Positions 5,204-45,644 of a stretch of 64,000 nucleotides of DNA are shown in pieces (the stretch's first letter is position 1; every line of letters starts with the position of its first letter). The notes under the pieces were generated by a model that saw only the letters and a program-made list of their open reading frames with translations, ran no database searches and was not told the DNA's origin. A program made the position numbers and the translations under genes. The stretch comes from a virus (Duplodnaviria; Heunggongvirae; Uroviricota; Caudoviricetes), in the IMG/VR virus record IMGVR_UViG_3300011339_000564, positions 14,318-78,317 of that record; one strand, written 5' to 3'.

Positions 5204-6487
5204 ATGAAACAAATTGTCATTATGCCGGGAGGCTTTCATCCATTTCATGCAGGGCACGCCGCACTATATCAAAGTGCAGTGAAAGCATTTCCGAGTGCAG
5301 AAGTATATGTTGCCGCTACCAATGACACAAAAACAAGACCTTTCCCCTTTAATATCAAAGAAAAACTAGCAAAACTTGCTGGCGTAGCTCCTGGACATTT
5401 TGTACAAGTTAAAAGTCCTTTTAAAGCAGAAGAAATCACAAGTCAATATAATCCAGAAGAAGATGTATTAATTTTTGTGCGTAGTGAAAAAGATAGAACA
5501 GAACAACCTAAACCAGGTGGCACAAAGAAAGATGGTACACCTGCTTACTTTCAACCATGGACCGGTAAGAATTTACAGCCATTCAGTAAACATGCTTACA
5601 TTGCTTACTTACCAACTGTAGAGTTTGGACCTGGAATTCAGAGTGCGACTGAGATTCGCAACATGTGGCCTAAACTAAACGATAAGCGCAAGACTGCATT
5701 GGTTATGAGTTTATATCCGATAACACAGACAAATCCTAAACTTGCCGCTAACGTTGTTAAGATGTTAGATATAGGCATGGGTGAACGACAAGGTGTGGCG
5801 GAGGATAAAGAATCCGATCCAGTCACAAGTGCTGTATTAAATTTCTATAAGCCAGTAATAAATGATATCCACAAAGAAAAACTACCAGACTATGTTGACC
5901 AAGCTCGTGGATTGTTACAGAAAACAAATGATCCTGATATTCGTAGTAAATTAGTTGATATCTTTAAAAAGGGTAAAGAAAATCCATATATTCAAGGTGG
6001 CATTGTTACTACCGTTGGTGCAGTATTAGCCGGTGGTATATTAACTACAGCACAGAAGATGGGACTAAGCCCTGCACAAACTAACTTAGCATTACAAGCA
6101 ATATTGAATACAGTTATTCCTACAGTTGTTTCACGTATCAATGGTAAAAACTGGAGTGATACAATTAAGTATACATTAGCAAGTGCAGGTATAGGTACAG
6201 GTATTGCCGGCGCAAGTTTAGTAGAAAACGATCCTTGGGGAGATCAAGGTAACTTTGCAGGTGATCGACACGTTGATATTGGTGGAATTTTTACTAGACC
6301 TAAATTAGGTGTAGGTGATATGGTTAAAGTAAATGCAGGTCATTTCAAAGGCATCGGAGAGATATCAGAAATTAAAGGTGACCGTGCAGAAGTTTGGATG
6401 GACAGCTATGCTAAATCCTTCATGTTTGATTTATCTGACCTAGTAAAGTATATACCCGAATCCATAGATTACTTAGAAGAAAAATAA
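5204..6487 (+). CDS. Two-part protein. An N-terminal HxGH nucleotidyltransferase domain (NMN/NaMN adenylyltransferase-like) is followed by a GVAE motif and a Gly-rich hydrophobic C-terminal half.
   Basis: IMPGGFHPFHAGH (the (T/H)xGH motif of the cytidylyl/adenylyltransferase superfamily). RQGVAEDKE at about aa 195. Hydrophobic segment GGIVTTVGAVLAGGILTTA. Confidence 0.6.
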   Translation: MKQIVIMPGGFHPFHAGHAALYQSAVKAFPSAEVYVAATNDTKTRPFPFNIKEKLAKLAGVAPGHFVQVKSPFKAEEITSQYNPEEDVLIFVRSEKDRTEQPKPGGTKKDGTPAYFQPWTGKNLQPFSKHAYIAYLPTVEFGPGIQSATEIRNMWPKLNDKRKTALVMSLYPITQTNPKLAANVVKMLDIGMGERQGVAEDKESDPVTSAVLNFYKPVINDIHKEKLPDYVDQARGLLQKTNDPDIRSKLVDIFKKGKENPYIQGGIVTTVGAVLAGGILTTAQKMGLSPAQTNLALQAILNTVIPTVVSRINGKNWSDTIKYTLASAGIGTGIAGASLVENDPWGDQGNFAGDRHVDIGGIFTRPKLGVGDMVKVNAGHFKGIGEISEIKGDRAEVWMDSYAKSFMFDLSDLVKYIPESIDYLEEK

Positions 6488-6538
6488 TTTGACCCCCTCG
6501 ATAGAGTGTAAATATCTTTATCTTAACAAGAGGACCAA

Positions 6539-7435
6539 ATGGCAACTAAGAAAACCAAAAAAACTGAAGAAAAAACTGTACCCGTAGAAAAGGTACAGGA
6601 AATCGCTGAACAAGCGGCACAAGAACAGCAACAAGCCCCGCAACAGGGTCAAGTTCAAGTTAATGTTGACTTTCTAAAAACTACCCGTGTGCACATTGCT
6701 ATGCCATGTTACGGTGGTATGTTGACAGAATCAACATTTATGTCATTCATCAAGTGGGCTAACACAGCCCGTCAACTTGGTATTGACTGGACATTAGAAA
6801 CAATGGTTAACGAATCATTGATTAGCCGAGCACGTAATACACTAACTGCAAAGTTCTTGGACATGCCAGACGCTACTCACTTGTTCTTTGTTGACGCTGA
6901 CATTGGCTGGGAACCCTGGCATCTATTAGTTCTATTGAACCGTGATGTTGATGTTATTGGTGGACTATATCCAATGAAGACTATGCCTATTAAATGGGTA
7001 GTTAATGGTTTTGAAGGTGCAGAAGAAGGCACTGATGGCCTACAGGAAGTATCTAAAGCAGGTACCGGTTTCTTACTAATGAAGAAGCATGTATTTGACA
7101 AATTGAAGTCTCATCCTGCAGTTAAGCAGTATAAGAACGACATTGGTTTAGATCCAAGATTTGACCAACACTTAAAGACTTACTTTGATACAGCAGTTCG
7201 TCAGAATCGTTACTACAGTGAAGACTGGACATTCTGTGAAAACTGGCGTGATATAGGTGGTAAGATTTGGGTTGACAAGCGTGTACTATTACGTCACAGC
7301 GGCTCATATGTTTTCTGCCAAGAGAACCAAGAACACTTGATGAAGACTATTGGACCCATGTACGTAGACCAATTGACTCAACAAGGTATTAAGCTAGTTG
7401 ACAAAGACGGCAACGAAGCTAAAATCAACAAATAA
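6539..7435 (+). CDS. putative glycosyltransferase (DxD-type); assignment tentative
   Basis: FFVDADIGWEP contains a DXD-like motif in a predicted alpha/beta context. SD-like AAGAGGA lies upstream. Confidence 0.45.
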   Translation: MATKKTKKTEEKTVPVEKVQEIAEQAAQEQQQAPQQGQVQVNVDFLKTTRVHIAMPCYGGMLTESTFMSFIKWANTARQLGIDWTLETMVNESLISRARNTLTAKFLDMPDATHLFFVDADIGWEPWHLLVLLNRDVDVIGGLYPMKTMPIKWVVNGFEGAEEGTDGLQEVSKAGTGFLLMKKHVFDKLKSHPAVKQYKNDIGLDPRFDQHLKTYFDTAVRQNRYYSEDWTFCENWRDIGGKIWVDKRVLLRHSGSYVFCQENQEHLMKTIGPMYVDQLTQQGIKLVDKDGNEAKINK

Positions 7436-7436
7436 A

Positions 7437-7464
7437 ACAAAGCCCCGAAAGGGGCTTTTGTTTG
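7437..7464 (+). terminator. rho-independent terminator
   Basis: aaagccccgaaaggggcttttgttt: a GC stem (AGCCCC/GGGGCT) with a GAAA loop, then a T-run. Confidence 0.8.
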
Positions 7465-7475
7465 ATAAATACACT

Positions 7476-8792
7476 ATGAATTTAAAAGAACTTGATTCCT
7501 TTCGCATCTCTGACGCTATTAGTTTCCATGACAAATTGAACCCTAAGTTATGGAATAATACACGGTTGCGTCCTGAAGTAAAACAACAACTATTAATAAT
7601 AGCAGAAGATTTTTTAGAAGAATTAGGTATTAGTGGATTAGATGTAATAGACATGACTGTATCTGGTTCTAATGCCGCATTTAGTTATACACCCAACAGC
7701 GACCTAGACTTACACATATTAGTTGATATGAGTAAGTTGCCAAATGATGAAGTTTACAGAGAATTATTTACAGCAAAAAAATCATTATACAATGACAGCC
7801 ACGACATAAAAATACACGGGATACCAGTAGAGTTATATGTACAAGACGCCAGAGAACCAGTCGTAAGTCTAGGTGAGTACAGTCTCACAAATGATAACTG
7901 GCTTAAAATCCCATCAAAACGCAGAGCCAATTTTGACCAAACCGCCACCAAGACGAAATATGAAAAGTTATTAACATTAATAGAGCTAGCCCTCAAATCT
8001 AGAAAATACAGTAAAGTAAGTAACATAGCTAAAACAATTAAAAGATATAGACAATCAGGATTAGATAAGGGTGGCGAGTTTGGTCCTGAAAATCTAGCAT
8101 ACAAAGCATTAAGAGCACAGGGTTACATTACTAAGTTATACGATTTGCGTGACAAGTTACATAGTGAGAAGTTAACTATTGAAACGATGTACCAGCCCAT
8201 AAACGATGACTATGATCCAAATGGTCCTCCTCCAGGTCCCGAGTTTAAACCAACTATGCCTAAAGGTACTGTTAAAGTAGACGTAAGTGATGTATATGAT
8301 TGGTATAAGTTAGGACAACATATTAGTAATCTTAAGGGTCTAGGTAAGCACGACTTTGGTAGTGGACCTCCTAGTACTATTTTTTCATTTGGTGATGAAG
8401 ATACAGAACACCAGTACATTAAAGATTTAGAGAAGACCGGATTAACGACAACTGATATTGATCCAGTTGATCCCAAGCAACCCAAGGGTATGAAGCGTCA
8501 GAAAGTTGATCCTACATATAACGTCAATGAATACAACACTATGCAATTTGCGGCTGAAAAAACACCAGCAACAAACCCATATGGTGGTCTTAAAGATAAT
8601 CAATTTCGAGGAAGTATGTCAGAAGCAAGTGGATATATACCTTCAGAAAAACAAAAAAATGATCCTCGTTTTAGTACAGCATTGACAGTGGATGTTCATC
8701 CTGATTCAATCAAAAAGAACGCAAAAGCATTTGGATGGCTCACTAGCAGAGCCGGAATCCCTCCTACAGCGAAAGCAAACGGCAAAATCTGA
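7476..8792 (+). CDS. Pol-beta superfamily nucleotidyltransferase-domain protein (438 aa). The start is taken after the terminator; the track ORF 7398 is an upstream extension.
   Basis: GSNAAFSYTPNSDLDLHIL matches G[SG]-x9-13-D-h-D-h of minimal nucleotidyltransferases. The ATG at 7476 follows the terminator. Confidence 0.55.
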   Translation: MNLKELDSFRISDAISFHDKLNPKLWNNTRLRPEVKQQLLIIAEDFLEELGISGLDVIDMTVSGSNAAFSYTPNSDLDLHILVDMSKLPNDEVYRELFTAKKSLYNDSHDIKIHGIPVELYVQDAREPVVSLGEYSLTNDNWLKIPSKRRANFDQTATKTKYEKLLTLIELALKSRKYSKVSNIAKTIKRYRQSGLDKGGEFGPENLAYKALRAQGYITKLYDLRDKLHSEKLTIETMYQPINDDYDPNGPPPGPEFKPTMPKGTVKVDVSDVYDWYKLGQHISNLKGLGKHDFGSGPPSTIFSFGDEDTEHQYIKDLEKTGLTTTDIDPVDPKQPKGMKRQKVDPTYNVNEYNTMQFAAEKTPATNPYGGLKDNQFRGSMSEASGYIPSEKQKNDPRFSTALTVDVHPDSIKKNAKAFGWLTSRAGIPPTAKANGKI

Positions 8793-8841
8793 TGGTAAAA
8801 AATTCTCTTTTGACTAAATATAAGTATCAAGGGAATTTTCT

Positions 8842-9087
8842 ATGCCAATTGCGAATAGCTATAATAATACACCAAACGTAGTTTTAGGTCCTCCAACTAG
8901 TTCTCCACCTACAGTTGATCCGGGCGCGGCTACAGGAACTAACCCAATAGTTAGAAGACCAACTCCTACAATATCATCTAATACTGAAGTAGCAAGTAAT
9001 GCTATTCCTGAAGCAGTTCCTACTCCGACTGTTAATCTTCCCACCGCAACTAACACAACAATATTGAAGTTGTGGAAAACAGCATAA
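8842..9087 (+). CDS. Pro/Thr-rich low-complexity small protein (81 aa); coding status uncertain
   Basis: ORF with GGGAAT upstream. Low-complexity PT-rich composition. Confidence 0.3.
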   Translation: MPIANSYNNTPNVVLGPPTSSPPTVDPGAATGTNPIVRRPTPTISSNTEVASNAIPEAVPTPTVNLPTATNTTILKLWKTA

Positions 9088-9162
9088 TAAACTAACAAGT
9101 TTGGTGGAATTCCTTGTCTATATAGATTTTTGATAAATACTATATAATATTGGAATTCCATC

Positions 9163-9942
9163 ATGCGTTTTACAGAAATATCAGAATCTACAACATCAGG
9201 CTCAGTATCTACTGTAGCAATGCCACTAGGCAAAACTCAAACACGTACTCAAGTATCTGGTTTAGAACCCGTGAAAAAAGTAATGGGCGGCACTGCTAAG
9301 AAAAAAGGTCCATATGGAAATAGTCTTACTGAAGGTGCTATGAAGCAACTTTCAATGGATCTTAAAGAGTTAAAAGACGAAGAATTCAAAAAGAAATATA
9401 ATATGACTAAGCAGGAAGCCCGTACTGAATTATCTGCAAAGCCTGAACCCATCAAAGAAGCAGAACTATCTGAAGATGATATCATATTAGTTCCAGGACA
9501 GGGACGCAAAATGAAAACTGGATTTGTACCGCATGGTCAAAGTCGTGTAGACCATGAAGTAGAAATGGCACGTAGTGATTTATTCAGTGCGGCAAAGAAC
9601 GCTAAACAAGTATATGAAATGATTCATAGTGTATCTGAAGATGAGGGTCTTGAGGGCTGGGTACAAGAAAAGATTATCAAAGCCAACGACTACCTAAATA
9701 CAGTACGTGAATACTTAGAAGGTAAACAAATTCAACAAGAAGCTAGTAGTCTTACATATGAAGGTAAGATTGACTTTGCCAAAAAGATACAAAAGAATGT
9801 AGATAAGAGTAACAAAGCAGTAGTAAAGACTAGAAAAGAAGTTGGTGCAAGAATTGCTGATATTGGTGCAGGCGGCAAAGAACACAATGTTAAAACTGAC
9901 AAAGCGTGGGACGATGCACAAAAAGCAAAGAAAGCAAAATAA
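9163..9942 (+). CDS. Lys/Glu-rich hypothetical protein (259 aa), possibly virion-associated or scaffold-like
   Basis: Long charged ORF directly upstream of the giant protein gene. Confidence 0.5.
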   Translation: MRFTEISESTTSGSVSTVAMPLGKTQTRTQVSGLEPVKKVMGGTAKKKGPYGNSLTEGAMKQLSMDLKELKDEEFKKKYNMTKQEARTELSAKPEPIKEAELSEDDIILVPGQGRKMKTGFVPHGQSRVDHEVEMARSDLFSAAKNAKQVYEMIHSVSEDEGLEGWVQEKIIKANDYLNTVREYLEGKQIQQEASSLTYEGKIDFAKKIQKNVDKSNKAVVKTRKEVGARIADIGAGGKEHNVKTDKAWDDAQKAKKAK

Positions 9943-9943
9943 A

Positions 9944-12900
9944 ATGAGCAATATTCTACAAGGCTTAAACGAAACACAAAAACATGACGGTGTATTCTTG
10001 TTAACAGAATCTCGTACATACAAGTTATGGGAGAGTGCTGGACAAAAGATTAGTGAAGCACAACTAACTGCCGATCAGATTAATCAAATCTTTAAACAAG
10101 TTGAACAAGGTGCTACTGCCGCAGGTGGTAATCGTACAATGCTCGGTAAAGGTAAAGACGCAGCCGGCGCAGTAAAGCAAGCATATGATGATTTGGTGAG
10201 TAAAGCACAGAACTCAGGACCTATTAAAGGTGTTGATGCGATGTACGACAAAGCCGCCGAAAAATTAAAACAAGCAACTGGTGGCGATCAGGGTGTAATG
10301 AAATATGTACAGAAATATCGTGACTTTGCTAAAGAACACCCAGTAGCACAAGGTTTAATATATTCAGCATTAATTGCAGCCGCTGGTATCAGTGGTGCAG
10401 GTATTGGTGGTGCAGCCGCACTAGGTTTGTTTAAGATGGTAGACAAATTGTTACAGGGTGAGAAGTTTAGTACTGCTGTAGGTAAAGGCGTAACTACTGG
10501 TGCAATGGCTTATGGTGCAAGTAAAGTTGGTGATCTTTTCAAAGGTTCACCGCAAGGCGCACCTACTACTGCTGGATCAGACGCTACCGCAGGTGCGGCA
10601 CAAGATACATTGTCTGCGACTAGACAAGCAGTGGAAAAAGAAGCTATGGATGCCATTAAGTCTAGAATTGCCAATGGAGAAATAGCACCCGGCGATCAAG
10701 GTGCCATACGATATTTGGCATACAAAATGCTAGCTGGATCATGTATGCCGCCGCCGTCTATAGAAACTTCTGTAGAAAAATTAATAACACGATCTATGGG
10801 TGATGTAGGAACTAGCGCAACTAATACAGTGTCCGGCACATTGTCAGGTGTTACCGGAGAACAGATGGCTAGTCATCCTGCATACCAAGCAATGATTCAA
10901 AAGTTTGGCAATACACCCGGCGCTCGTCAGGCGGCTATGGCTGCTGCCAAGTCAGCAATTCTTAAGGGACAAGTCAATGAAAGTATCAATTTATCAGAAT
11001 CTCAAATCTTTCTATTGATAGGTAAGATTGTTGAACGTCAACGTAAACTTGACGAAGGCATCATGGATACACTTAAAGGCGCCGCAGGTAAAGCCGCCGA
11101 TTGGGCACAAACTAAAGGAACTAATTTAACAACTAAAGTTACTGCTGACAAATTATTACAAGCGTGGAAGAAAGCTGGTAGTCCAACAGATAGTTTAGAT
11201 GTTGCAAGCATTATTCAAAAAGCTGGTGTACCATCTGATTCAATCAAACAAGTATACACTACAATGCAAATACCTTTTGCAGGTGAAAAAGGTGCAGGTG
11301 CGAGTACAAAACGTAATATAGATGTTGATCCATCAAGTGTTGCACCAGCCGCTCCAACAAGTACACCCACTGCTTCTGCACCGTCAGCTACAGCAAATGC
11401 GCCGGCGGCAGATGCATCACAGCCTGCTACGGCCGCAACTGGCTCTTTAGCACAAGCACAAGAACTCATTGCAAAATTAGATCCAGAAACTAAAACAAAA
11501 CTTATATCAACATTGAAACAAGAGTTGAGTGTAGCTGAAAGTCGAATCAATGAATTATCTAATGAAAAATTAGGACAATACAAAAAAGCCGCAAGTGCTG
11601 ACGCTACTGCCGCTGACAAAGCAGGTGACTATAAGCGTGGTGATAAACGTTTCAGTGGTATTGTTCGTGCAACTAACAAACAGTTTGCTAATGATACTAA
11701 AAAACATGGTCAGCAAGGTGTGGCGGAAGGCTTAGAGCAATCATTATCGTCAATGGTAAGACAAGATCAGACTGAGCGGAATGAGTATGCAACCTTTGTA
11801 AAATCACAAGCAGGTGGTGATTGGTCCAAAGGGGCTAAAATGTATGCTCAACTCAAAAAAAGACCCATCGATGATATATTTGGTGATGCAATAAGATTAA
11901 ACCAGTTTATGAAAATGAAGTTTGATTTTGATAAATTTACCAATGAAGATTGGGACAATTATTGGTTGTTAGCACAGCATTGTGATAATAATCGTGACTT
12001 TCAAAAGAATGCTTTATCAATAATTAAAAAATATCAAGGTACAGATCATTCGCACTACAAATATCTATACGATAGAATCAGTATGGGTCTAACTGGTAAA
12101 CAGAAATACGGAACACAGAATATTAAAGAGCAAGGCGTGGCAGAAGGCTTCCCTCATGATGTTGACCATATGCCGGGTCCTGTGATTCGCAATGCTGATA
12201 TGACTACAGATAATGTCAAGACCAAAGACAAAGCAGAATGGGACAGAGCCACTGATAGCATCAACGCACGGGTGTTTGATGATATGAGTGAATTTCGCAC
12301 TGACAACAACGGTGAAACAGTTGTCGGTGATAGCGCAGTTTGGGCCAAGTGGGACAATGCTACACAAACAGGTTGGTTCAATGCCAAAGGTCGCCCATTA
12401 AAGCCTTGGCCTGTTAAAGAGCAAGGTGTGGCGGAAGGTGATGGGCCAAGATATATTGATAACATAATGAACCAGTATAAGGCAGGCTTGCCTGGCCAAA
12501 ACCCGGCGGCCTTATCTAAACCAACTAGAGCAGTTGATGCCAGAGGTCGCACACAAGAACAATGGGCACAATTAGTTAGGAGCAAGTTTCCGGGTGCTAA
12601 AATTACACAGGCTAAAATGATTGACGGGCCTATGCAAGCAACCTTACCTGATGGTAGAAAACTTGGATGGAAAAAAGTTGAACAAATTGATGAAATTATT
12701 GATCCTAGCACAAAGATGGCATGGGCATTACGCCACATCGCCGGGTTCCTTACTAGATTATTTCCTTACGCAGTGGGCGCCGGAACTTTGTGGGCAGCCA
12801 GTGGACTGTTGGCCCCACTAGTGGCTGCATCCGGTGGAGTGGCCGCGGCAATTTCTGCATTAGGCGGTTCAATGGGATCAGCTACAGGCGCGGCTGCAGG

Positions 12901-13795
12901 AGCAGTTGGCGGTGCCAGTATAATGCAAATTATTAAAAACTTATTTGCCGCAGACGAGAATAGTATACAAGCAGGAATTAAAAAGTGGGTAGAAAGACAA
13001 GTAGGTGACGAAGCCGATGTACAAGAATTTTTACTAACTCATGCCAAAGCCGCATATGACGGTAAACCTGGTTTCCGTTGGAGGGCTAAAGAGTGGCCTG
13101 TTAAATTAAGTAAAGATCAAGCAGAAGCATATTTAGAAAAGAAAGATAAATCTTGGCTTGATTATGAAAAGCAAAAAATAATCGATGCTGAAAAAGCGAA
13201 GGCTGAAAAAGATAAAGAAGGTATGATGGAAGAACAACTTGATGAACTAAATTGCTGGTCAGGTTACCATAGAGTTGCCGGCACTAAAGCAGGCTTTCCA
13301 GGTAGTTGTGCTAAAAATAAAACAAATGAATCAGAACATAAATGCCCACATTGCGGTGGCGAGATGGTTAGTGAAGAACTAATGAATGAAAAGAAAGATG
13401 CTTGCTACTATAAAGTAAAGAGCCGTTATAAAGTATGGCCAAGTGCTTATGCTAGTGGTGCGTTAGTTAAGTGCCGTAAGAGTGGTGCTGATAGCTGGGG
13501 CAACGGTGGAAAGAAGAATGAAGGTTCTATACTAGAAGGTATTAACCGAGCAGACGAAAGTTTGCATGATTGGTTTAATAAAGAAAAGTGGGTTCGCATG
13601 GATACTAAAGGAAAGATTAAAGGTCCGTGTGCTAGAGAACCAGGAGAAGGTAAACCTAAATGTTTACCTCAAGCAAAGGCACATAGTTTAGGCAAAAAAG
13701 GTCGTGCAAGCGCGGCTGCTAGAAAACGCAGAGAAGATCCCAATCCAGAACGTAGTGGTAAAGCCATCAATGTTAATACTAAAAAGAAAGACTAA
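9944..13795 (+). CDS. giant protein (1283 aa). Features are Gly/Ala-rich hydrophobic segments, three EQGVAEG motifs, coiled-coil and a C-terminal Cys cluster. Putative virion internal/ejection protein.
   Basis: ATG at 9944 lies just after the TAA of the upstream ORF; the track start 9842 is an in-frame upstream extension. Motifs: QQGVAEGLEQ, KEQGVAEGFPHD, KEQGVAEGDGPRY; CPHCGG...C...C near the C-terminus; hydrophobic block AVGAGTLWAASGLLAPLVAASGGVAAAISALGG. Confidence 0.75.
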   Translation: MSNILQGLNETQKHDGVFLLTESRTYKLWESAGQKISEAQLTADQINQIFKQVEQGATAAGGNRTMLGKGKDAAGAVKQAYDDLVSKAQNSGPIKGVDAMYDKAAEKLKQATGGDQGVMKYVQKYRDFAKEHPVAQGLIYSALIAAAGISGAGIGGAAALGLFKMVDKLLQGEKFSTAVGKGVTTGAMAYGASKVGDLFKGSPQGAPTTAGSDATAGAAQDTLSATRQAVEKEAMDAIKSRIANGEIAPGDQGAIRYLAYKMLAGSCMPPPSIETSVEKLITRSMGDVGTSATNTVSGTLSGVTGEQMASHPAYQAMIQKFGNTPGARQAAMAAAKSAILKGQVNESINLSESQIFLLIGKIVERQRKLDEGIMDTLKGAAGKAADWAQTKGTNLTTKVTADKLLQAWKKAGSPTDSLDVASIIQKAGVPSDSIKQVYTTMQIPFAGEKGAGASTKRNIDVDPSSVAPAAPTSTPTASAPSATANAPAADASQPATAATGSLAQAQELIAKLDPETKTKLISTLKQELSVAESRINELSNEKLGQYKKAASADATAADKAGDYKRGDKRFSGIVRATNKQFANDTKKHGQQGVAEGLEQSLSSMVRQDQTERNEYATFVKSQAGGDWSKGAKMYAQLKKRPIDDIFGDAIRLNQFMKMKFDFDKFTNEDWDNYWLLAQHCDNNRDFQKNALSIIKKYQGTDHSHYKYLYDRISMGLTGKQKYGTQNIKEQGVAEGFPHDVDHMPGPVIRNADMTTDNVKTKDKAEWDRATDSINARVFDDMSEFRTDNNGETVVGDSAVWAKWDNATQTGWFNAKGRPLKPWPVKEQGVAEGDGPRYIDNIMNQYKAGLPGQNPAALSKPTRAVDARGRTQEQWAQLVRSKFPGAKITQAKMIDGPMQATLPDGRKLGWKKVEQIDEIIDPSTKMAWALRHIAGFLTRLFPYAVGAGTLWAASGLLAPLVAASGGVAAAISALGGSMGSATGAAAGAVGGASIMQIIKNLFAADENSIQAGIKKWVERQVGDEADVQEFLLTHAKAAYDGKPGFRWRAKEWPVKLSKDQAEAYLEKKDKSWLDYEKQKIIDAEKAKAEKDKEGMMEEQLDELNCWSGYHRVAGTKAGFPGSCAKNKTNESEHKCPHCGGEMVSEELMNEKKDACYYKVKSRYKVWPSAYASGALVKCRKSGADSWGNGGKKNEGSILEGINRADESLHDWFNKEKWVRMDTKGKIKGPCAREPGEGKPKCLPQAKAHSLGKKGRASAAARKRREDPNPERSGKAINVNTKKKD

Positions 13796-13804
13796 AGGAC
13801 AATA

Positions 13805-14245: not shown

Positions 14246-15515
14246 ATTAGAATTTACCCAGAAAGAATGGGAAAAGATAGAAAATAACGGGACTTATTGT
14301 CCCGGTTTATTTAACAGCAAATACATAGAAACTGACGGTGGACTGAGAGCATGTTGTGTTCAAGATTTAAAAGGTGAACATTATACAAATACAGAATCCT
14401 ATAACACCACTTCGTTAAAACAAGCCAGACAAAATTCATTATCAGGGATTAAAGATTCCAGTTGCGCTAGATGTTGGGAAAATGAATCATTAAACACCAG
14501 ATCATATAGACAAGGTCTAGTAGAGTCTGCTATTCACTGGAAAAGTAAAATCAAAGATAATATAAATGTTGACTATTCCATCACAGAACCCACCATAGAC
14601 TACTTAGACATTAGATTTGATAATATCTGTAATTTAAGATGTAGATATTGCAGTACTATTTTTAGTTCTAGTTGGAGACACGAAACTGAGTTACTAGAAA
14701 AAGAATTACCAATATTTAAATATATAAAAAGAAGATCAGTAGATACAAAAATATTGAATAGTGTAACCGATATTGACACGATATTAGCTGACCTTAGAAC
14801 AGTTAAAAAAATATTTTTTGCGGGTGGCGAGCCATTAGTAAACGATAAACATTATGAAGTGTTAGAATATCTAATAGATAATAATAGAACCAACATTGAA
14901 ATAACGTATAATACTAATTTTACAAACATTAAAAAAGTTATTCCTTATTGGAAAAAGTTTTCAAACATACACGTGGGTGCAAGTTTAGATGCAAATTATA
15001 AAAGAGGAGAATACATTCGTAAAAATCTCGTATGGGACCAGATTGTAGAAAATAGAAAATTAATGATTGCCGAAGTTCCTCATGTTCAATTTGAAATAAA
15101 TGCGTCAATGAGTATATTGAATGCGTATAATGTAGTAGATTTTCATAAAGAATGGATTAATGATAAATTAATTGGACCTTTTGATTTAACTGCATGGAAT
15201 TTTGTATCTAAACCTGAACATTATGATATTAGGAATTTACCTGACCATCATAAGATTAAATTAAAAGAAATATATCAAACTCATATTGATTGGTTAAACT
15301 CCCTCACATCAGGCAATGATATTAAGTTTAAAAGTAAAAATGATTCTAGTTTTGCTATTCAATCATATCAAGGTATAATTAATAGGTTAAATTTAAGTAG
15401 AAATTCATCTTTTGACAAATTTTGGGAATTTGACAAATGGTTAGATAATAATAGAGATGAAAACTTTTTTGATGTGTTTCCTGAGTATGAGGACTTTGCT
15501 AGATATTTTAGCTAA
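14238..15515 (+). CDS. radical SAM domain protein with an N-terminal Cys-rich extension
   Basis: CNLRCRYC is a CX3CX2C radical SAM cluster motif. Additional N-terminal cysteines (CPG...ACC...CARC). No C-terminal SPASM cysteines. GTG start assumed at 14238. Confidence 0.65.
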   Translation: MSKLEFTQKEWEKIENNGTYCPGLFNSKYIETDGGLRACCVQDLKGEHYTNTESYNTTSLKQARQNSLSGIKDSSCARCWENESLNTRSYRQGLVESAIHWKSKIKDNINVDYSITEPTIDYLDIRFDNICNLRCRYCSTIFSSSWRHETELLEKELPIFKYIKRRSVDTKILNSVTDIDTILADLRTVKKIFFAGGEPLVNDKHYEVLEYLIDNNRTNIEITYNTNFTNIKKVIPYWKKFSNIHVGASLDANYKRGEYIRKNLVWDQIVENRKLMIAEVPHVQFEINASMSILNAYNVVDFHKEWINDKLIGPFDLTAWNFVSKPEHYDIRNLPDHHKIKLKEIYQTHIDWLNSLTSGNDIKFKSKNDSSFAIQSYQGIINRLNLSRNSSFDKFWEFDKWLDNNRDENFFDVFPEYEDFARYFS

Positions 15516-15544
15516 ATATTATTATAAGAACAATAGAGAGTAAC

Positions 15545-16707: not shown

Positions 16708-16787
16708 AGTAATTTTTTCTATATTTTGTAAATTTTTATGCCAAATGGAATAAATATATGTTCATCATATTTATTATCGGAGGACAG

Positions 16788-17747
16788 ATGAGAAAACTTT
16801 TAGTATTATTAGCATTTATACCGTTAGTTGCTTTTGCTTGGCAACCAACAAAACCTGTAACAGTTATATTCCCAAATGGCCCGGGAGCAGGAAATGAAAT
16901 ATCATTTCGTATTGTAGCAGAGATTGTAGAAAAACAAACTGGTGCAAAATTTGTACCTGAATATAGGCCGGGAGCTGATGGCAATATAGCTATCAATCAC
17001 TTTGTAACAGTTCCTACTGATGGGCACACTATCAGTGTTCCGGCATGTCAGTCAAATTGGGTCACCCCTGAAGTGTGGTATCCAAAGGTAATCAAGTATA
17101 ACCCAATGGATTTAGAACCCATTGCTAATATTGCACGTAGTCCATTAGCATTCTGGGCGCATCCTAGCAGTAAGATTAATACTCCCGAAGAACTAGTAGC
17201 CGCTATTCGCAAAAAAGAGCGCCCTATTACAATAGCAATAGGTGGCGGCGGTCATAAGTTAGCAGTTGAATATCTTGCTGCCAAACTAAATGTACCGGGC
17301 GGTGATCGAATAGAAACAGCTATGTATAAAGGTCCAGCACAAGCGTTATTAGATGTAATGGGAGGTCACGTTGAATTTGGAGTGACCCCGGTTGCTGTTG
17401 GATACCCTCACGTACAAACAGGAAAACTAAAGTTAATTGGTATTGCTGATACTAGACCATTGCCTGGATTAGAAACAGCACCATTGATGAATAAGGCAGC
17501 ACCTGGATTAAGCATACATGGTTGCTGGAATATAGTTCTACCTCCCAATACCCCGCAGGATATACAAAAATGGTATGCTGAACACTTTGTTCCTGCAATA
17601 CGTAGCGCGGAAGCAGGCGCTAAATTCAAAGAAAACATGATGTACATTACACCCGAAGAACATAGCCCAGCAGGTGTTCGTGCTAGTATGTCGAGACTAC
17701 AGCAAGTTTGGCAACCGATTGCTAGAAGAATAGATCCTAATAAATGA
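16788..17747 (+). CDS. TctC/Bug-family periplasmic solute-binding protein (tripartite tricarboxylate transporter receptor-like)
   Basis: Signal peptide MRKLLVLLAFIPLVAFA. Length and motifs (PNGPGAGNEISFRIVAE, EYRPGADGNIAI) resemble the Bug/TctC family. Start chosen at the internal ATG 16788 with GGAGGA upstream. Confidence 0.55.
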   Translation: MRKLLVLLAFIPLVAFAWQPTKPVTVIFPNGPGAGNEISFRIVAEIVEKQTGAKFVPEYRPGADGNIAINHFVTVPTDGHTISVPACQSNWVTPEVWYPKVIKYNPMDLEPIANIARSPLAFWAHPSSKINTPEELVAAIRKKERPITIAIGGGGHKLAVEYLAAKLNVPGGDRIETAMYKGPAQALLDVMGGHVEFGVTPVAVGYPHVQTGKLKLIGIADTRPLPGLETAPLMNKAAPGLSIHGCWNIVLPPNTPQDIQKWYAEHFVPAIRSAEAGAKFKENMMYITPEEHSPAGVRASMSRLQQVWQPIARRIDPNK

Positions 17748-36235: not shown

Positions 36236-36236
36236 A

Positions 36237-37466: not shown

Positions 37467-37469
37467 AAT

Positions 37470-38715: not shown

Positions 38716-38716
38716 T

Positions 38717-38941: not shown

Positions 38942-38945
38942 ATAT

Positions 38946-39125
38946 ATGTATGAATTAAGATATCTTGTCCGAAACGGTTGGGATGGACCTGAACAAGTGT
39001 TACAATATAGAACTCAACATGAAGTAACAGACTATAGTGGCACAGATCCTAAAACAGGTGGATTCATTAGAAAAATAGAATGGACTGAATGGAAGTATGT
39101 CCCCACCGTAGATGAAACAAAATGA
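38946..39125 (+). CDS. hypothetical small protein (59 aa; below the ORF-track threshold)
   Basis: ORF with an ATGA overlap to the next gene (39122). Confidence 0.35.
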   Translation: MYELRYLVRNGWDGPEQVLQYRTQHEVTDYSGTDPKTGGFIRKIEWTEWKYVPTVDETK

Positions 39126-40471: not shown

Positions 40472-41298
40472 AAAAAGTTTTAATTACAGGTAACTCAGGT
40501 TACATTGGCAGTCATCTAAGTAAGATGTTAATGGATACAATGAAATATGAAGTTCATGGATTAGATATCCGTGACCCGCAATATGCATTGAATAGATTTT
40601 ATCGTCAAGATATCAATAGACAATTTTCATTAGATGAAGAATTTGATGCAGTCATTCACTTAGCCGCATTAGTTAATGTAGGTGAAAGTGAACAGATACC
40701 CATTCAATATTATATCACTAACTTAAATGGCACAATGAATGTCATTAACAAAGTAAAGACTAAAAACTTTATATTTGCAAGTACGGGTGCCGCAGTTGGT
40801 TGCGAAAGTGCTTATGGTATCAGTAAACGTGCCGCAGAAGATGTAGTCAAAGAATACTGCACACATCACAATAAAAAAGATTATACTATCTTTAGATTTT
40901 ATAATGTGATTGGTACTACCGTTGTTCCACCTACAAATCCAGATGGATTAATGTATAACTTAATGAAAGCACGTGAAACAGGTGAGTTTACTATCTTCGG
41001 TAATGACTATGACGTTAGTGATGACGGTACATGTGTGCGTGATTATGTACATGTGAATGAAATTTGTGACTCATTAGCACAGGCTATCGAAAAGCCTAGT
41101 AACCAAATTGAATCATTGGGTCACGGAGTGGGATGGACAGTTAAAGAGATTGTCGATGAGTTTCAAAAAGTCAATCACGTTGACTTTGAAGTAAAATACG
41201 GCCCAAGAAGAAAGGGTGATCTTGCTAGTTCTGTACTAGAAGATGTTTCACCCTATATGCGTAATCTATATACTATGGATGAGTTGCTTAAGGTTTAA
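40468..41298 (+). CDS. NAD-dependent sugar epimerase/dehydratase (SDR superfamily, GalE-like)
   Basis: ITGNSGYIGSHL (GxxGxxG Rossmann motif). YGISK (YxxxK catalytic dyad). Confidence 0.8.
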   Translation: MKKVLITGNSGYIGSHLSKMLMDTMKYEVHGLDIRDPQYALNRFYRQDINRQFSLDEEFDAVIHLAALVNVGESEQIPIQYYITNLNGTMNVINKVKTKNFIFASTGAAVGCESAYGISKRAAEDVVKEYCTHHNKKDYTIFRFYNVIGTTVVPPTNPDGLMYNLMKARETGEFTIFGNDYDVSDDGTCVRDYVHVNEICDSLAQAIEKPSNQIESLGHGVGWTVKEIVDEFQKVNHVDFEVKYGPRRKGDLASSVLEDVSPYMRNLYTMDELLKV

Positions 41299-41299
41299 T

Positions 41300-41773
41300 T
41301 TATAGACCAATCTTGGGTGGATACATTGGGCCAGACTTTATTCGTTCACCACCGTCAAAGTAACTAATTTCTACTGGTAATTCTTTCCAGCCTAATCTAT
41401 GTGCAGCCATGATACGATGATTACCTTCGTTTACCCAGGCACTGCCATCATAGGCCACATTGATAAAAGGTTTGTATTCTTCACTAGAGTGTGAATGTAA
41501 TGGTAGCTTGCCGGTGTCCTTCATTATTTTCATAATTGCAATAAGATCACCTTGACGCACATTTTGTTGTTCGTTTCGCATACCGGGTATTTGTCTTAGT
41601 AAGTTAACAGGAATTTCAACTTTTCTGACAGTAGCAGTTGTCTTTCCCATGTAGGGCAAACCATTACGATCAGGACTTTTTTGCTTGGCATACGCAATAG
41701 CATCGTTTAGCCATTCCTCATTAGGCACATCAACACTAAGTGTTCCTTCAGTTATAAATTCTTTTGCTCTCAC
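41300..41773 (-). CDS. hypothetical protein (157 aa)
   Basis: ORF on the minus strand. Its stop abuts the plus-strand epimerase stop within 1 nt. Confidence 0.5.
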   Translation of the reverse strand: MRAKEFITEGTLSVDVPNEEWLNDAIAYAKQKSPDRNGLPYMGKTTATVRKVEIPVNLLRQIPGMRNEQQNVRQGDLIAIMKIMKDTGKLPLHSHSSEEYKPFINVAYDGSAWVNEGNHRIMAAHRLGWKELPVEISYFDGGERIKSGPMYPPKIGL

Positions 41774-42444
41774 ATTGATCCTTTAGAATTAACAAACCAG
41801 GGGTCAACTATAACTAATTCTCCATTACTACGTTGCATGACATTTTCGGTGTGCAAGTCCCAACCAAATTTGTTTATTCTACCCGATTGATATAATAGTT
41901 TCATTACACTAAACAAGGTAGCATACGTCTTATAAAAAGTAACACCTTGCTGTGTCATTGCATTATCTATAAGTTTAGCCATTTTAGATGATATTGGGCT
42001 AGAGAAGAATTTCCAAGTTTCAGGATCAGTTAGTGAAGGTAAGATTTGTTGCCAAGTCTCACCTGTAACAGCATAGTCACTTAATATCCAGACCATTGCT
42101 TCTTCAACACTGTTCTTTTTAATAGGCTGAAGATGTTCCATGTCAATTTGTATGTAATCCTCACCGGCAATATCGATTGTATTCATTTCATTAAATATAG
42201 GTAAACAAGAAATCTCAGGATGATTTTCACAGAATTCGTAAAACTTTTTAAATACTTTTTCAGCGTGACCACTAGGATCATCTGGCATTAATATTTTAAT
42301 CACATGACTAGTATCTTTAGCCCATACTCTTGCATCAGCTCCGCTACCAATATGTTTGTAACCTAGTGATTTTAAATGCGCGGCAATTTCTTTGAAGGCT
42401 GGTCCTGTTGCAGCCTCATCTACTGCAAATTCATTGGCTCTCAT
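41770..42444 (-). CDS. hypothetical protein (224 aa)
   Basis: ORF. Confidence 0.5.
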   Translation of the reverse strand: MRANEFAVDEAATGPAFKEIAAHLKSLGYKHIGSGADARVWAKDTSHVIKILMPDDPSGHAEKVFKKFYEFCENHPEISCLPIFNEMNTIDIAGEDYIQIDMEHLQPIKKNSVEEAMVWILSDYAVTGETWQQILPSLTDPETWKFFSSPISSKMAKLIDNAMTQQGVTFYKTYATLFSVMKLLYQSGRINKFGWDLHTENVMQRSNGELVIVDPWFVNSKGSM

Positions 42445-42623
42445 TTCTTGCGACCCCTAAACCCTACTGGCATCTGCAAATCATTAACGGGAAACATTGC
42501 TTTGAACCACTCATCAGTACCAGGCTTAGCAGTAATTTTGCTACGGTCTATAGGCACAGAAGATGTAGGTTTTCCTCTATGGTCGGTAACTCCTGCAAGT
42601 CTTTTAAGTTGATCTATGTTCAT
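42441..42623 (-). CDS. hypothetical small protein (60 aa)
   Basis: ORF that fills the gap, with overlaps on both ends. Confidence 0.35.
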   Translation of the reverse strand: MNIDQLKRLAGVTDHRGKPTSSVPIDRSKITAKPGTDEWFKAMFPVNDLQMPVGFRGRKK

Positions 42624-43174
42624 AGACTCTTACCCCAGCGTGTGTTAATCACATTCCAGTTGATAATCTTCCACTGTTCAGCCAAATACTTTTTCTTATC
42701 AGCACCGTAGTCTAATATCCACGCATGTTCCCACCAATCAACTAATAACAATATATCATTGCGTACTTCATGGTTCTTAATTGTTTTAATTTTACCATCA
42801 GTTGCTAAATATACCCACCCACTACCTTGTATCTTCATTGCTTCAGTTTCAAACTGTGACTTCATATTATCGTATGAGCCAAAATGTTTGTTAATAAAGC
42901 CCATCATGGGGCCGTTTGGATTGTTTTTATTTCTTACTTCACGGAACTGAGGGAACAATGTATTATGTAAGAATGCACCTGCATAGTTAAATTCTTTATC
43001 TCCGATATCTTTGTTATATCTTTCAGCATAGCCATGTGCTAACTTGCCATAGTGTAAGTCTATAGTGTCTACCGACAAAACCGGACTTAGTTCTTTTGGC
43101 TCAAAATTAAGCTGAATGATTTCTATATCTTGAGGTTTTGACTTATCCTCAAGTAACTGAATTAAATCACGCAT
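42620..43174 (-). CDS. sodA: Fe/Mn superoxide dismutase
   Basis: N-terminal LHYGKLAHGYAERYNK matches H..KHH..YV. C-terminal VDWWEHAWILDY matches the SOD signature DxWEHAYY. Confidence 0.8.
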   Translation of the reverse strand: MRDLIQLLEDKSKPQDIEIIQLNFEPKELSPVLSVDTIDLHYGKLAHGYAERYNKDIGDKEFNYAGAFLHNTLFPQFREVRNKNNPNGPMMGFINKHFGSYDNMKSQFETEAMKIQGSGWVYLATDGKIKTIKNHEVRNDILLLVDWWEHAWILDYGADKKKYLAEQWKIINWNVINTRWGKSL

Positions 43175-44955
43175 CAGTGTTTCAATAATAATGTAGAAAT
43201 GATGTTAGGATCGTTAGCACTGATATCACCTTCACCGGGTGCAACGATAACATTGTACTTCATACCGGCTGGTATTGATTTACGTTTAGCCATGTACTGA
43301 TTATAGTCTAATATAGAGTTGGCACTTAATCCATACTCTTTTGCAAGACGATTCTTTAGTTCAGGTAACTTATCAGGTTGTACTTGCCATTGGCCTTCTG
43401 ACCCCTTAACTAAGTTTTTCTTTTCGTCCTTAACTAATAAATCTTGGAACAAGTCATCTGGAACAATACGACTATTCTTAGTTTTATCTAAGTTAGCATC
43501 ACTTGCCTTAACTTGTTTCTCTTGTGATGTATGAGCACCTTCACTCCAATTGATAATAAAGTTAGGTGGCTTCTGACCTAATGCGGCACCAGCCATCTTT
43601 GTGTAAGCATAGAACTTAGTATCAGGATGCTTTGCAGCCATCTTTAATGCCAAGTCTAAATATTCTGGGCTGAAGAAGTCACCAGCATCATGCCAACGAA
43701 TAGTAGTTTGCCAACCTTTAGGGAATTTCTTATCACCCTTTTGACCAGCTTGTTCTTCTTTGCTAATCTCACTACTTAATTGATTGAAGAACCCGTCTGG
43801 ATCATTCAATAGATATGTTAATATTCTTCCGTCACTTTGCCATGCGTTCTTAAACTGAATTTTTCCGCCCTTCATAGCAAAACAATCTATTTTACATGAG
43901 CCTGCGCCCGGGCATGTATTAACAATGATTAGTTTATTTGTTTGTTCGTCTAGTGCAATACCAGTCAATGCCGCAAAGCCAACGTTGAAGAATTGTTCAA
44001 ACTCTCCGTTACTATGCTTCATCTTTTCGTTTTGCTTTAGTAATGATTTAGGGCGTTGTGACAATGTTTTCTTAACTGCATCCTCATCATATGTTGCACC
44101 ATCTGGACCTAAGTATTCAACTACACTACTACGGTGGATATAAGGCATTTTGTATCTATCTGTTTTTGTTTTACCAGATACATATTTTTCATTACCCTTT
44201 TTATCTACCTTAACATTACCTGCTTTGTCTGTATCAGGAGTACCAACAATACGTTTCATGTAATCTTGGAACTCATCGCCACCAAACTCACGGCTACTTG
44301 CTGGCAGTTTAGTTGCTTCTTCTAAGCCAGATAGTTTGCGAATTCTATCTAAGCCTTCCGCCACACCTTCATTTGCACTTTGACTAGCCAATTTATAAAT
44401 ATACGCAGTACCGTTGGGTAATAGATACGTAGTATAATTTCCTATACCCCTCTCACCCATTTGAGCCTGTTGAATTGTTATCATTTTTGCGCCGCGCGGC
44501 GTTGGGCCATCATTAGGTACCAGCATACCTTTATATTCTTTGCCTCCATGGTGCACAACTATACCAGTGTCGCTTCGTTCTACTTTTTCTGCTGTATCAA
44601 CATTTTGATTTGGCATCTGACCACCAGATTTTTCTGCACTGGCTTGAAATCCTTGTTGAGCCATTTGTTGTGCGGCACTAGGTGACATTTGGCCATCAGC
44701 ACCAAGACTAACTCTTGCGTGTGCAGAGCCAGCTGACCCTAACGCACCCATTGCACCTAATGCCATTGCACCTGTTGCGGCTGCTTTTTTCCAATTAATT
44801 TCGTCAAGTTGCTCTTCCGTCATACCTTCTTCTGATTCTTCATCGGGCATATCACCCGCTTTAGTAACGAATTGCTGAGGTGTCATAATTTGGATGCCAC
44901 TAGGTGCTCCAGGCATTTTTGGCTCTACGCCTTCGAATAGTTCTTTGAAATTCAT
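43174..44955 (-). CDS. large hypothetical protein (593 aa) with a Gly/Ala-rich N-terminal region and a GVAEG motif; candidate packaged virion protein
   Basis: NEGVAEGLDRI at about aa 200. AATGAMALGAMGALGSAGSA block. Confidence 0.55.
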   Translation of the reverse strand: MNFKELFEGVEPKMPGAPSGIQIMTPQQFVTKAGDMPDEESEEGMTEEQLDEINWKKAAATGAMALGAMGALGSAGSAHARVSLGADGQMSPSAAQQMAQQGFQASAEKSGGQMPNQNVDTAEKVERSDTGIVVHHGGKEYKGMLVPNDGPTPRGAKMITIQQAQMGERGIGNYTTYLLPNGTAYIYKLASQSANEGVAEGLDRIRKLSGLEEATKLPASSREFGGDEFQDYMKRIVGTPDTDKAGNVKVDKKGNEKYVSGKTKTDRYKMPYIHRSSVVEYLGPDGATYDEDAVKKTLSQRPKSLLKQNEKMKHSNGEFEQFFNVGFAALTGIALDEQTNKLIIVNTCPGAGSCKIDCFAMKGGKIQFKNAWQSDGRILTYLLNDPDGFFNQLSSEISKEEQAGQKGDKKFPKGWQTTIRWHDAGDFFSPEYLDLALKMAAKHPDTKFYAYTKMAGAALGQKPPNFIINWSEGAHTSQEKQVKASDANLDKTKNSRIVPDDLFQDLLVKDEKKNLVKGSEGQWQVQPDKLPELKNRLAKEYGLSANSILDYNQYMAKRKSIPAGMKYNVIVAPGEGDISANDPNIISTLLLKH

Positions 44956-45644
44956 TTCTTGTGGTTCCTAATAAATTGTTCTGCTAGCATTACTAATTCT
45001 TGCATTTGCTCAATAGATTCACAATGCCATCTACGTAAACTCTTATTAATATTGCTGTTTGGATCACGTGCTGTTTTAGCACTTGTACGATGTTTCTTCA
45101 TACCGCGCATTCTAGCGCAAAAACTAGCACGGCGCTTTGCGTCCTTGCTACCCTTTTTAATCTTGCTTGGCTTTTTAGTAACTGCTGTTTGAATCTTGCT
45201 ACCAGGATGACTACGGCGATAACTACTTACAGATTTTTTACTCATCCCACCTACACGTTTGTTATTGTGCTTTGACCAATTCTCGCCTTCCGCCACACCT
45301 TGACTTAATAATTTTTTAACAGATATTGGACCTGATTGATTTTCTGCACCGGTTAAAAATTCATTTCCCCATGGGGTTATCCAACCATCAAATTCAATAT
45401 CATTGCCTTGAACCATAATATCATTATTACCATCAAGGTTTTGATATCCATTCAACTCTTTGTACCATTTTCTTAATGATTGTAACTTGTATGGACCTTT
45501 GTAGCCTTGTTTTTTCAAAATAGAAATAATTTCCGGAGTAAATCCAACTGGTTGACCCTCAGATACTTTCTCTTTTTTGCTAATAGCAATAGCGGCTTGT
45601 TGTGCTGGATTTGCGGCTTCTGTTAAAATTTCTGTTATTCTCAT
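44952..45644 (-). CDS. hypothetical protein (230 aa). A GVAEG motif is followed by a highly basic C-terminal half. Internal-protein-like.
   Basis: SQGVAEGENW, then a Lys/Arg-rich tail (KKPSKIKKGSKDAKRRASF...KKHRTSAKTARD). Confidence 0.55.
   Translation of the reverse strand: MRITEILTEAANPAQQAAIAISKKEKVSEGQPVGFTPEIISILKKQGYKGPYKLQSLRKWYKELNGYQNLDGNNDIMVQGNDIEFDGWITPWGNEFLTGAENQSGPISVKKLLSQGVAEGENWSKHNNKRVGGMSKKSVSSYRRSHPGSKIQTAVTKKPSKIKKGSKDAKRRASFCARMRGMKKHRTSAKTARDPNSNINKSLRRWHCESIEQMQELVMLAEQFIRNHKK

Follow-up and report, generated by a model that had tools for sequence, protein, structure and literature searches.

We identified a nearly invariant DNA word of 16 nucleotides (nt), AAGGTGTGGCGGAAGG, that lies in frame within genes of T4-superfamily phages, giant ones included, where its codons xAA GGT GTG GCG GAA GG[C/T] encode [Q/E/K]-G-V-A-E-G. 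The word was analysed in 64,000 nt of the metagenomic virus record IMGVR_UViG_3300011339_000564 (positions 14,318 to 78,317), hereafter the window, which spans replication and auxiliary genes of an uncultured giant phage in the T4 superfamily. The word is conserved at the nucleotide level and stands at the borders of unrelated protein cassettes, DNA homology between contigs breaks at its edges, and the genes that carry it, or that cluster with such genes, begin with leaders of the capsid-targeting type. In the explanation that we favour and hold to be reasonably probable, the word is an in-frame linker between cassettes of capsid-targeted polyproteins and acts both as a T4-type protease site and as a patch of DNA microhomology for in-frame swapping; the polyproteins joined by it are probably injected.

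In the window, the 17-mer form CAAGGTGTGGCGGAAGG has six matches with at most two mismatches, compared with 0.02 expected from dinucleotide shuffles, and six or more matches were reached in none of 100 such shuffles. All six copies are in frame, encode [R/Q/E/N/S][Q/E]GVAE[G/D] and are spread over four otherwise unrelated open reading frames (ORFs). The initial annotation had reported six sites in four unrelated proteins on both strands, and we confirmed each to within 1 nt (Table 1). The flanks of the six copies are unrelated save for a few bases at their edges: positions 11715-11736 and 44348-44369 share 22 identical nt, and the stretches that begin at 12123 and 12414 share 25 nt at 92% identity. 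The window has a guanine-plus-cytosine (GC) content of about 37%. A Chi-like or generic repeat was ruled out, as sub-words of 7-9 nt are not enriched in the window away from the word sites and the 17-mer, whose frequent occurrence outside coding motifs would by the initial annotation have marked it as a generic repeat, was found nowhere outside them. Two further candidates were rejected: tRNA supply (the window contains no tRNA genes) and a T4 late promoter (the window has just two copies of TATAAATA, neither of them 5' of the relevant genes).

Table 1. Copies of the word, decayed copies, and the genes that carry or accompany them in the window (aa, amino acids)
Feature	Position	Strand	Remarks
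Cytidylyltransferase-like (nucleotidyltransferase, NTase) fusion protein	5204-6487	+	Gly/Ala-rich C-terminal extension after decayed word; no targeting-type leader
Word, two mismatches, CAAGGTGTGGCGGAGGA (RQGVAED)	5789-5805	+	Joins cytidylyltransferase-like enzyme to C-terminal extension; decayed
259-aa protein, leader MRFTEISESTTSGSVSTV	9163-9942	+	Directly 5' of giant gene; leader like that of T4 IPI
Giant modular protein, 1282 aa from ATG 9947	9947-13795	+	At least six cassettes; mechanical ORF opens at TTG 9842
Canonical word CAAGGTGTGGCGGAAGG (QGVAEG), exact	11714-11730	+	Junction 1, giant protein
Word, two synonymous changes (GGC, GCA), EQGVAEG	12131-12147	+	Junction 2, giant protein
Canonical word, exact, EQGVAEG	12422-12438	+	Junction 3, giant protein
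Decayed word GAAGGTATGATGGAAGAA (EGMMEE), four mismatches	13218-13233	+	Giant protein; opens second shared 51-nt linker block
Possible decayed junction GAAGGTTCTATACTAGAAGGT (EGSILEG)	13520-13540	+	End of DUF5872-like module, giant protein
Free-standing cassette, GTG start, leader RAKEFITE/G	41300-41773	-	Same domain follows QGVAEG word in locus L102
Kinase-like protein, leader MRANEFAVDE/A	41770-42444	-	Same minus-strand cluster; weak Kinase-PolyVal match
593-aa protein	43174-44955	-	Leader MNFKELFE/G, leader domain, variable cassette, word, GP88 domain
Word GAAGGTGTGGCGGAAGG (EGVAEG), one mismatch	44354-44370	-	Variable cassette / GP88-type C-terminal domain, 593-aa protein
Decayed word GAAGGTATGACGGAAGAG (EGMTEE)	44813-44828	-	End of conserved N-terminal leader domain, 593-aa protein
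230-aa basic protein	44952-45644	-	Leader MRITEILTE/A, module, word, DUF6321
Canonical word, exact, SQGVAEG	45286-45302	-	N-terminal module / DUF6321, 230-aa basic protein

That the DNA is conserved beyond the peptide, as the initial annotation had proposed, holds in loci gathered independently of the word. To avoid ascertainment through the word, we picked 80 loci whose proteins resemble the 593-aa protein in regions other than the word, and found in them 107 unique contexts within two mismatches of a 14-mer core, where fewer than one was expected; read in the GVAEG frame, none meets a stop within 10 codons. Over positions -2 to +13 of these contexts conservation never falls below 0.86, and it is random beyond both edges; variation per synonymous site is about the same as that per non-synonymous site, and the fourfold-degenerate T of GGT is kept in 106 of the 107. 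Across 70 unique GVAEG peptides, the first Gly is encoded by GGT in all 70 (background 54%), Val by GTG in 64 (91%; background 13%), Ala by GCG in 66 (94%; background 8%) and the second Gly by GGC in 46 (background 22%), with binomial p values for the skew of 1e-15 to 1e-67. Elsewhere in the loci, Val and Ala are least often encoded by GTG and GCG, and their commonest codons, GTT and GCT, are used in 0 of the 70. Every codon variant is a G-to-A transition, and the peptide variants GVAEA, GMAEG and GVAES are 1-2 nt off the master word and keep GTG/GCG; the variants form a mutational cloud around one DNA sequence.

These observations leave selection on the peptide only, with GVAEG serving as a protease site or flexible linker and the identity of the DNA coming from codon preference or chance, very improbable. 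At one orthologous junction the Glu at P1 is nearly invariant and fits the T4-type hydrophobic-x-Glu rule, as such selection would have it, yet TFKES, AANES, ILPEA and TTEG also occur there, and the peptide requirement is therefore loose, which sharpens the contrast with the invariant DNA. Preference for the rarest codons, a set of variants that are all transitions from a single master word, and synonymous variation as low as non-synonymous variation all argue against this explanation, and so does our control, a conserved protein family with ...GGSRQGVAEGVMAGEYGRMA, in which the same peptide drifts synonymously (GTT GCT, GTG GCA, GTT GCA). Comparing the synonymous conservation of the word with that of its flanks at one junction gave no information, the module next to it being nearly identical in DNA among those loci. 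As a separate observation, the first codons of the GP88 module in loci L187-L266 (AGA ATT CGT AAA CTA TCT GGC TTA, encoding RIRKLSGL) are almost invariant synonymously among 10 unique sequences; DNA-level conservation may extend into some module edges, or the spread of the GP88-type module may be very recent.

Homology between contigs ends at the word. We compared 300 nt on each side of every word between different contigs, requiring homology of at least 60 nt abutting the word, and found that homology breaks off no more than 10 nt from the word in 59 pairs and passes through it in 4, whereas at control positions shifted by 90 or 150 nt it stops in 46 and passes through in 84 (Fisher p = 7e-16 for word against control). 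The breakpoints often lie 0-1 nt from the word. In example pairs, with identity measured over 75 nt per side, L002 and L044 are 96% identical upstream and 21% downstream, L011 and L111 100% and 28%, L093 and L102 27% and 100%, and the window copy at 45286 and L023 32% and 87%. Both flanks of a canonical junction are homologous in another contig in only 10 of 257 cases under the stricter definition of junction sites (a looser one was diluted by chance sites), and of these ten, seven are near-identical pairs and three belong to the control family; individual junctions thus appear young, and the word universal.

One-sided homology that ends at a short repeat resembles an assembly chimera, and all of the material is metagenomic. 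That the pattern is an artefact of contigs chimeric at a shared k-mer, or the product of recent intragenomic duplication, is nonetheless scarcely credible: identities of 16-22 nt are below the final k-mers that assemblers generally use, reading frames are always kept, and the same genes recur in independent samples, with 1808 homologues of the 593-aa protein from many projects. Recent duplication is further contradicted by the unrelated flanks of the six window copies. The identical 230-aa gene recurs in independent samples and sources (ENA, Logan), followed by the complete 593-aa gene in at least two of the three places shown.

A constraint on RNA or translation would act through the G-rich character of the word (GG-N3-GG-N1-GG-N2-GG, with a weak Shine-Dalgarno-like AAGG/GGTG), which might pause ribosomes or form a small G-quadruplex and so aid the stepwise folding of cassettes. 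The two unusual third-position G's are indeed those that complete the four GG runs, and in every case the word is found on the coding strand at the edge of a domain. We nevertheless consider such a constraint quite unlikely, given that the predicted two-layer quadruplex is worth only -1.4 kcal/mol and enters the minimum-energy fold at two of the six sites, no consistent hairpin is present, and positions of no relevance to a quadruplex (the T of GGT, the preceding AA) are equally conserved; the end of inter-contig DNA homology at the word would also be left unexplained.

Recognition of the word by a dedicated DNA enzyme (a site-specific recombinase, a homing-type nuclease or a hotspot factor), which would amount to an integron or shufflon inside reading frames, is unlikely, if worth keeping in view. 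It would account for the uniform conservation over 16 positions, the fourfold GGT site included, for the sharp edges, and for breakpoints that often lie 0-1 nt from the word. These phages commonly carry homing-endonuclease-like genes; in locus L038, for example, a basic 240-aa ORF, GIY-YIG-like by eye, lies between the capsid and GVAEG genes. The word, however, has no internal symmetry, flanking inverted repeats or predicted structure, and a Pfam scan of 18 window ORFs showed no recombinase. Furthermore, T4-type phages recombine well at short homologies without such an enzyme, and passive exchange predicts the same mutational cloud. The more ambitious version, in which the word is the target of a dedicated phage enzyme or hotspot mechanism within an integron-like in-frame system that reshuffles injected anti-defence polyproteins across the phage metapopulation, is slightly less likely still.

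In all four window proteins, boundaries of homology coincide with the positions of the motif. Homologues of NTase residues 1-190 in seven loci stop there or continue with unrelated sequence. The cassettes of the giant protein have independent homology boundaries: matches of relatives end at residues 585-595 at junction 1 (motif from 591), begin at about residue 725 at junction 2 (motif at 730), begin at about residue 1095 at the decayed word 13218-13233, and end at 1185-1195 and begin at 1200 near 13520-13540, where loci L032 and L064 read ...WGNK..EGVAEG at the equivalent position. The DNA 5' of the 11714 copy is 76-77% identical to that of L110 and L116, with no homology 3'. For the 593-aa protein, the matches of about 94 related loci begin at residues 185-210, those to the N-terminal domain stop at residues 35-50, and the DNA 3' of the 44354-44370 word is 83% identical to that of L085, with no homology 5'. 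Matches to the 230-aa protein begin at residues 105-120 (motif at 116).

The relatives of the 593-aa protein display this architecture most clearly. They have in common an N-terminal leader domain (MNFKELxE/G...QQFVAKAGDMPGEESEE[GVAEG]) and a C-terminal domain ([GVAEG]EEHLxRIRKLSGL...GP88), between which lie from zero to four unrelated cassettes, each bounded by the word. GVAEG is present at the junction between variable cassette and GP88 in 52 of the 120 homologues listed, and relatives carry EE[GVAEG] where the window reads EGMTEE (44813-44828). Internal cassettes across all loci have a median length of 72 aa, and one cassette family has up to seven different left neighbours. Single-linkage clustering of cassettes merged them into one big cluster, decayed words being left unsplit, and only small clusters were used. 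Locus L102 reads ...QGVAEGKLSVDVPNEEWLQDK where the window gene at 41300-41773 reads ...ITEGTLSVDVPNEEWLNDA; the same domain is stand-alone in the window and follows QGVAEG in L102, which indicates that cassettes move between stand-alone and internal positions.

Two side observations concern these genes. A 51-nt block with 80% identity, 13204-13254 on the plus strand and complementary to 44792-44842 on the minus strand, encodes EGM[MT]EEQLDE[LI]N.W in the giant and 593-aa proteins, opens with a decayed copy of the word and may represent another type of junction. In the Prochlorococcus phage P-SSM2, PSSM2_123 (L183, 1940-2755), between gp15 and gp16, comprises four small basic Cys-containing modules (LHDWFNK..., CW.GY, DUF5872 and DUF6321) with no GVAEG word; in the window these modules stand in another order and are divided between the end of the giant protein and the 230-aa protein.

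Beyond the window, the 16-mer is present in at least 120 IMG/VR phage contigs, many with 2-6 copies at spacings divisible by three. Translation of 168 word contexts from IMG/VR yields [Q/E/K]GVAEG in all but a few high-GC chance matches, with dissimilar flanks, and the ORFs that bear the word reach 1570 aa and carry up to six copies. When the third positions of the Val and Ala codons were left free (N), 58 of the 120 contigs listed, in scan order, had G at both, and each of the other 15 combinations gave 2-9 matches, many of them high-GC chance matches or other proteins. In 596 Gb of cellular genomes, the 18-mer was found in only 56 stretches, almost all of them single matches in high-GC actinomycetes. 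We also noted a contig from an uncultured Bacteroidetes metagenome-assembled genome bin (CAILDT010000116.1, 8,950 bp; L315) with three copies of the word within about 900 nt, which is probably a mis-binned phage contig.

Cultured relatives are distant. The family-B DNA polymerase encoded in the window shares 49% identity with that of Sinorhizobium phage Phosso, 46% with that of Atu_ph07 and 44% with those of RaK2-like phages. Neither the giant gene nor the minus-strand genes had a megablast match among 50,697 phage records. Protein searches recovered single cassettes only, in cyanophages and pelagiphages, and the one homologue read lacks the word. The initial annotation had offered two explanations for the conservation of the DNA, and the pair proves too narrow. 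Very recent spread of one cassette is at odds with the presence of the word in at least 120 contigs, where its unrelated contexts number in the hundreds. For a constraint on RNA, we found no structure. A persistent recombination junction fits the data better, homology between contigs breaking precisely at the word.

Leaders of the form M[RKN]xx[ED][FIL]xxE, much like the capsid-targeting sequence of T4, head the word genes, or genes clustered with them, in the window and in IMG/VR (most complete GVAEG ORFs). Those of the window are MRAKEFITE/G, MRITEILTE/A, MRANEFAVDE/A, MNFKELFE/G, MRFTEISES..., MSNILQGLNE/T and MRFTEISESTTSGS; the giant protein, with MSNILQGLNE, has L-x-E at residues 8-10. 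In T4 (NC_000866), ipII and ipIII encode MKTYQEFIAE/A and are exactly alike in their first 32 nt, and ipI encodes MKTFKEFTSTTTPVSTITE/A; L093 has MRATEFIIEGVAEG. The 10-residue capsid-targeting sequence of T4 steers proteins into the prohead, and residues 8 and 10 of the leader govern its removal by the gp21 protease, which cleaves after Glu. By sequence, V-A-E/G fits the rule, described for T4 and giant phages, of hydrophobic (L/I)-x-Glu followed by a small residue, with G[VIM][ATS]E[GAS] variants at the same sites.

The minus-strand cluster of leader-bearing genes in the window also contains a Fe/Mn superoxide dismutase gene (Sod_Fe_C, Pfam; 42620-43174), whose product has an N-terminal extension of about 15 residues, MRDLIQLLEDKSKPQD, that resembles targeting-type leaders (L-L-E at residues 7-9). 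The gene order 230-aa, 593-aa, superoxide dismutase recurs in two of the three independent metagenome contigs shown. The dismutase may be packaged in the capsid. The Kinase-PolyVal match of the 41770-42444 product is below threshold in Pfam (18.1 bits against a cut-off of 27).

Word genes also lie next to head genes. In L016 the word gene is beside homologues of the T4 protease gp21 and capsid protein gp23, in L038 beside homologues of the portal protein gp20, gp21 and gp23, and in L061 beside a gp23 homologue. The capsid N-termini in these three loci read ...EAL[LM]E/G, and the adjoining GVAEG gene is full of G[VIM][ATS]E[GA] sites. Pfam assigned 16 families to 62 GVAEG proteins, including GP88, DUF6321, GNAT acetyltransferases, LysM, family-19 glycoside hydrolase, deaminase and ParB_N. 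Most PHROGs matches of the cassettes have no known function, and some carry the label virion structural protein. Homologues in cyanophages lie between gp15 and gp16, and one cyanophage homologue is annotated as a structural protein. By analogy with T4, the word-carrying proteins are probably packaged in the capsid. The initial annotation had read them as packaged head or ejection proteins with a T4-like protease site, a proposal to which the targeting-type leaders and the neighbouring head genes lend strong, if indirect, support; the NTase fusion lacks such a leader. It had also called for a search for a prohead protease, which turned up gp21 homologues in L016 and L038 and, with T4 gp21 as query, no match in the window.

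We now return to the linker explanation and set out how it would work. A leader ending in hydrophobic-x-Glu would ensure uptake into the prohead, where a gp21-type protease would cut after Glu in V-A-E/G and free each cassette as a small protein to be ejected with the DNA. The same 16 nt in every joint would offer a microhomology patch at which co-infecting phages, or genes within a single genome, could recombine; T4-type phages recombine at homologies of 2-10 bp. An exchange would swap everything on one side of the joint, always keeping the frame and the cut site, and between oppositely oriented copies it would proceed by inversion. Extant junctions would be young products of exchange, and mutated words would drop out of the exchanging pool. 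Continual exchange with loss of mutated copies would thus hold synonymous positions invariant despite the loose peptide requirement. The GNAT acetyltransferases, ParB-like domain, deaminase, lysozyme-like domains and many unknown small domains fit a role as injected effectors.

Several considerations weigh against this explanation. The T4 gp21 query had no match in the 64-kb window, though a distant homologue could escape it, and the NTase fusion protein carries no targeting-type leader. We infer cleavage at VAE/G and packaging from the analogy with T4 and the fit of the sequence, and the recombination mechanism is likewise something that we infer: selection for functional chimeras after random recombination also leaves breakpoints at linkers, and their clustering by itself does not prove that the crossover uses the word. 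Sixteen nucleotides are short for efficient homologous recombination in several characterised systems. A passive process alone may be hard-pressed to yield 99% conservation of the fourfold T in GGT, for which direct selection on the nucleotide may be the alternative. An AlphaFold2 model of the 593-aa protein, built with 60 homologues, places the motif after a small beta module in a stretch (residues 189-239) with a predicted local distance difference test (pLDDT) score below 50, and weakly suggests a disordered linker there, the model being of low confidence (mean pLDDT 49.7). Finally, the exact 16-mer count in IMG/VR is a lower bound on prevalence and taxonomic spread.

Among known systems, the gp21-processed internal proteins of T4 (IPI, IPII, IPIII and Alt) are alike in having a short N-terminal leader that ends in hydrophobic-x-Glu, mature parts that are diverse, fast-evolving and often basic, leader DNA that is conserved between paralogues, and a proposed role against the host after injection. 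They differ in consisting of one leader and one mature domain, whereas here the cut-site motif recurs internally, two to at least six cassettes share an ORF, the word is spread over the many IMG/VR contigs described above, and packaging and cleavage are proposed by analogy. Polyvalent proteins carry several unrelated effector-type domains per polypeptide and are thought to enter the host with the DNA, with proteolytic release proposed (Iyer et al. 2017, PMC5512222). The giant protein, with its cassettes, falls within their range of 2-15 unrelated effector domains per polypeptide, and ParB_N, GNAT, deaminase and lysozyme-type domains are found among GVAEG proteins. In polyvalent proteins, however, processing is proposed to be by an in-built metallopeptidase, and the word "linker" is absent from that paper (PMC5512222); their hallmark zincin-like metallopeptidase was not found in the GVAEG proteins, the Pfam results for the 62 GVAEG proteins and for the window proteins containing no metallopeptidase family.

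The promoter-early stem-loops (PeSLs) of T4-type phages and Botstein-type linkers are likewise short and conserved, border variable cassettes and are favoured as sites of recombination, and shuffling at conserved linkers of the PeSL kind avoids non-viable products. PeSLs, however, are about 100 bp long and intergenic, contain a promoter and a stem-loop, and shuffle whole genes, whereas the GVAEG word, of 16 nt, is translated as part of the ORFs that contain it, has no predicted structure and shuffles domains in frame. Elsewhere in the window, repeats of 35-56 nt with TTGACA-N17-TATAAT sigma-70-type promoters stand between small ORFs (47187-47221, 57447-57481, 57784-57818 and 58107-58141) and are reminiscent of PeSL cassettes.

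Shufflons and invertible tail-fibre segments (Rci, Gin, Cin) are intragenomic switches driven by a dedicated, adjacent site-specific recombinase. They share with the system described here short repeats inside coding sequence and the in-frame exchange of alternative C-terminal segments, also by inversion. The exchange seen here, by contrast, is between genomes across the metapopulation, with no recombinase among the scanned window ORFs, and the word lacks the structured or partly palindromic site of shufflons and integrons, having neither dyad symmetry nor a consistent fold. Targeting leaders, Glu-specific prohead proteases, linker-mediated shuffling and polyvalent proteins are thus already known. 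What would be new is a linker that is translated and invariant in its nucleotides, serving both to mark a cut site and as a crossover for in-frame cassette exchange across hundreds of phage contigs; we found no earlier description of one, and in the literature library searched the string GVAEG appears in four papers, none of them on phages.

The window has a few other features of note. Paralogous small genes at 49881-50646, 59033-59327 and 60326-60566 encode products that start with ATGAACGA.CGAATTCGACAACT, contain FAELIV.EC and end with AAACATTTCGGAGTTGAAGAATGAA; in this family, the stop codon and the next start fall within one base of each other. At 53974-54090 there are three tandem 39-nt units, two of them identical, which on the plus strand would read APAKKEEAKPAAA, a low-complexity Ala/Lys/Pro sequence in a putative frame. 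Two plus-strand auxiliary genes are unusual, one encoding a full-length ClpA/ClpB-type double AAA+ unfoldase (1658-3919; Clp_N, AAA, AAA_2, ClpB_D2-small) and the other a TctC-family periplasmic solute-binding protein (16758-17747).

If the linker explanation is true, the word is the clearest natural example so far of the linkers predicted by the modular theory of phage evolution, placed between protein domains rather than genes, with a single 16-nt sequence serving as protease site and crossover point at once. It would explain how T4-like and giant phages build sets of small proteins for injection, likely effectors of counter-defence, and rapidly re-assort them. Searching metagenomes for the word offers a way to find candidate injected effectors by the hundred and to place the boundaries of their domains, and the word suggests a natural design rule for the packaging and release of foreign proteins from phage heads.

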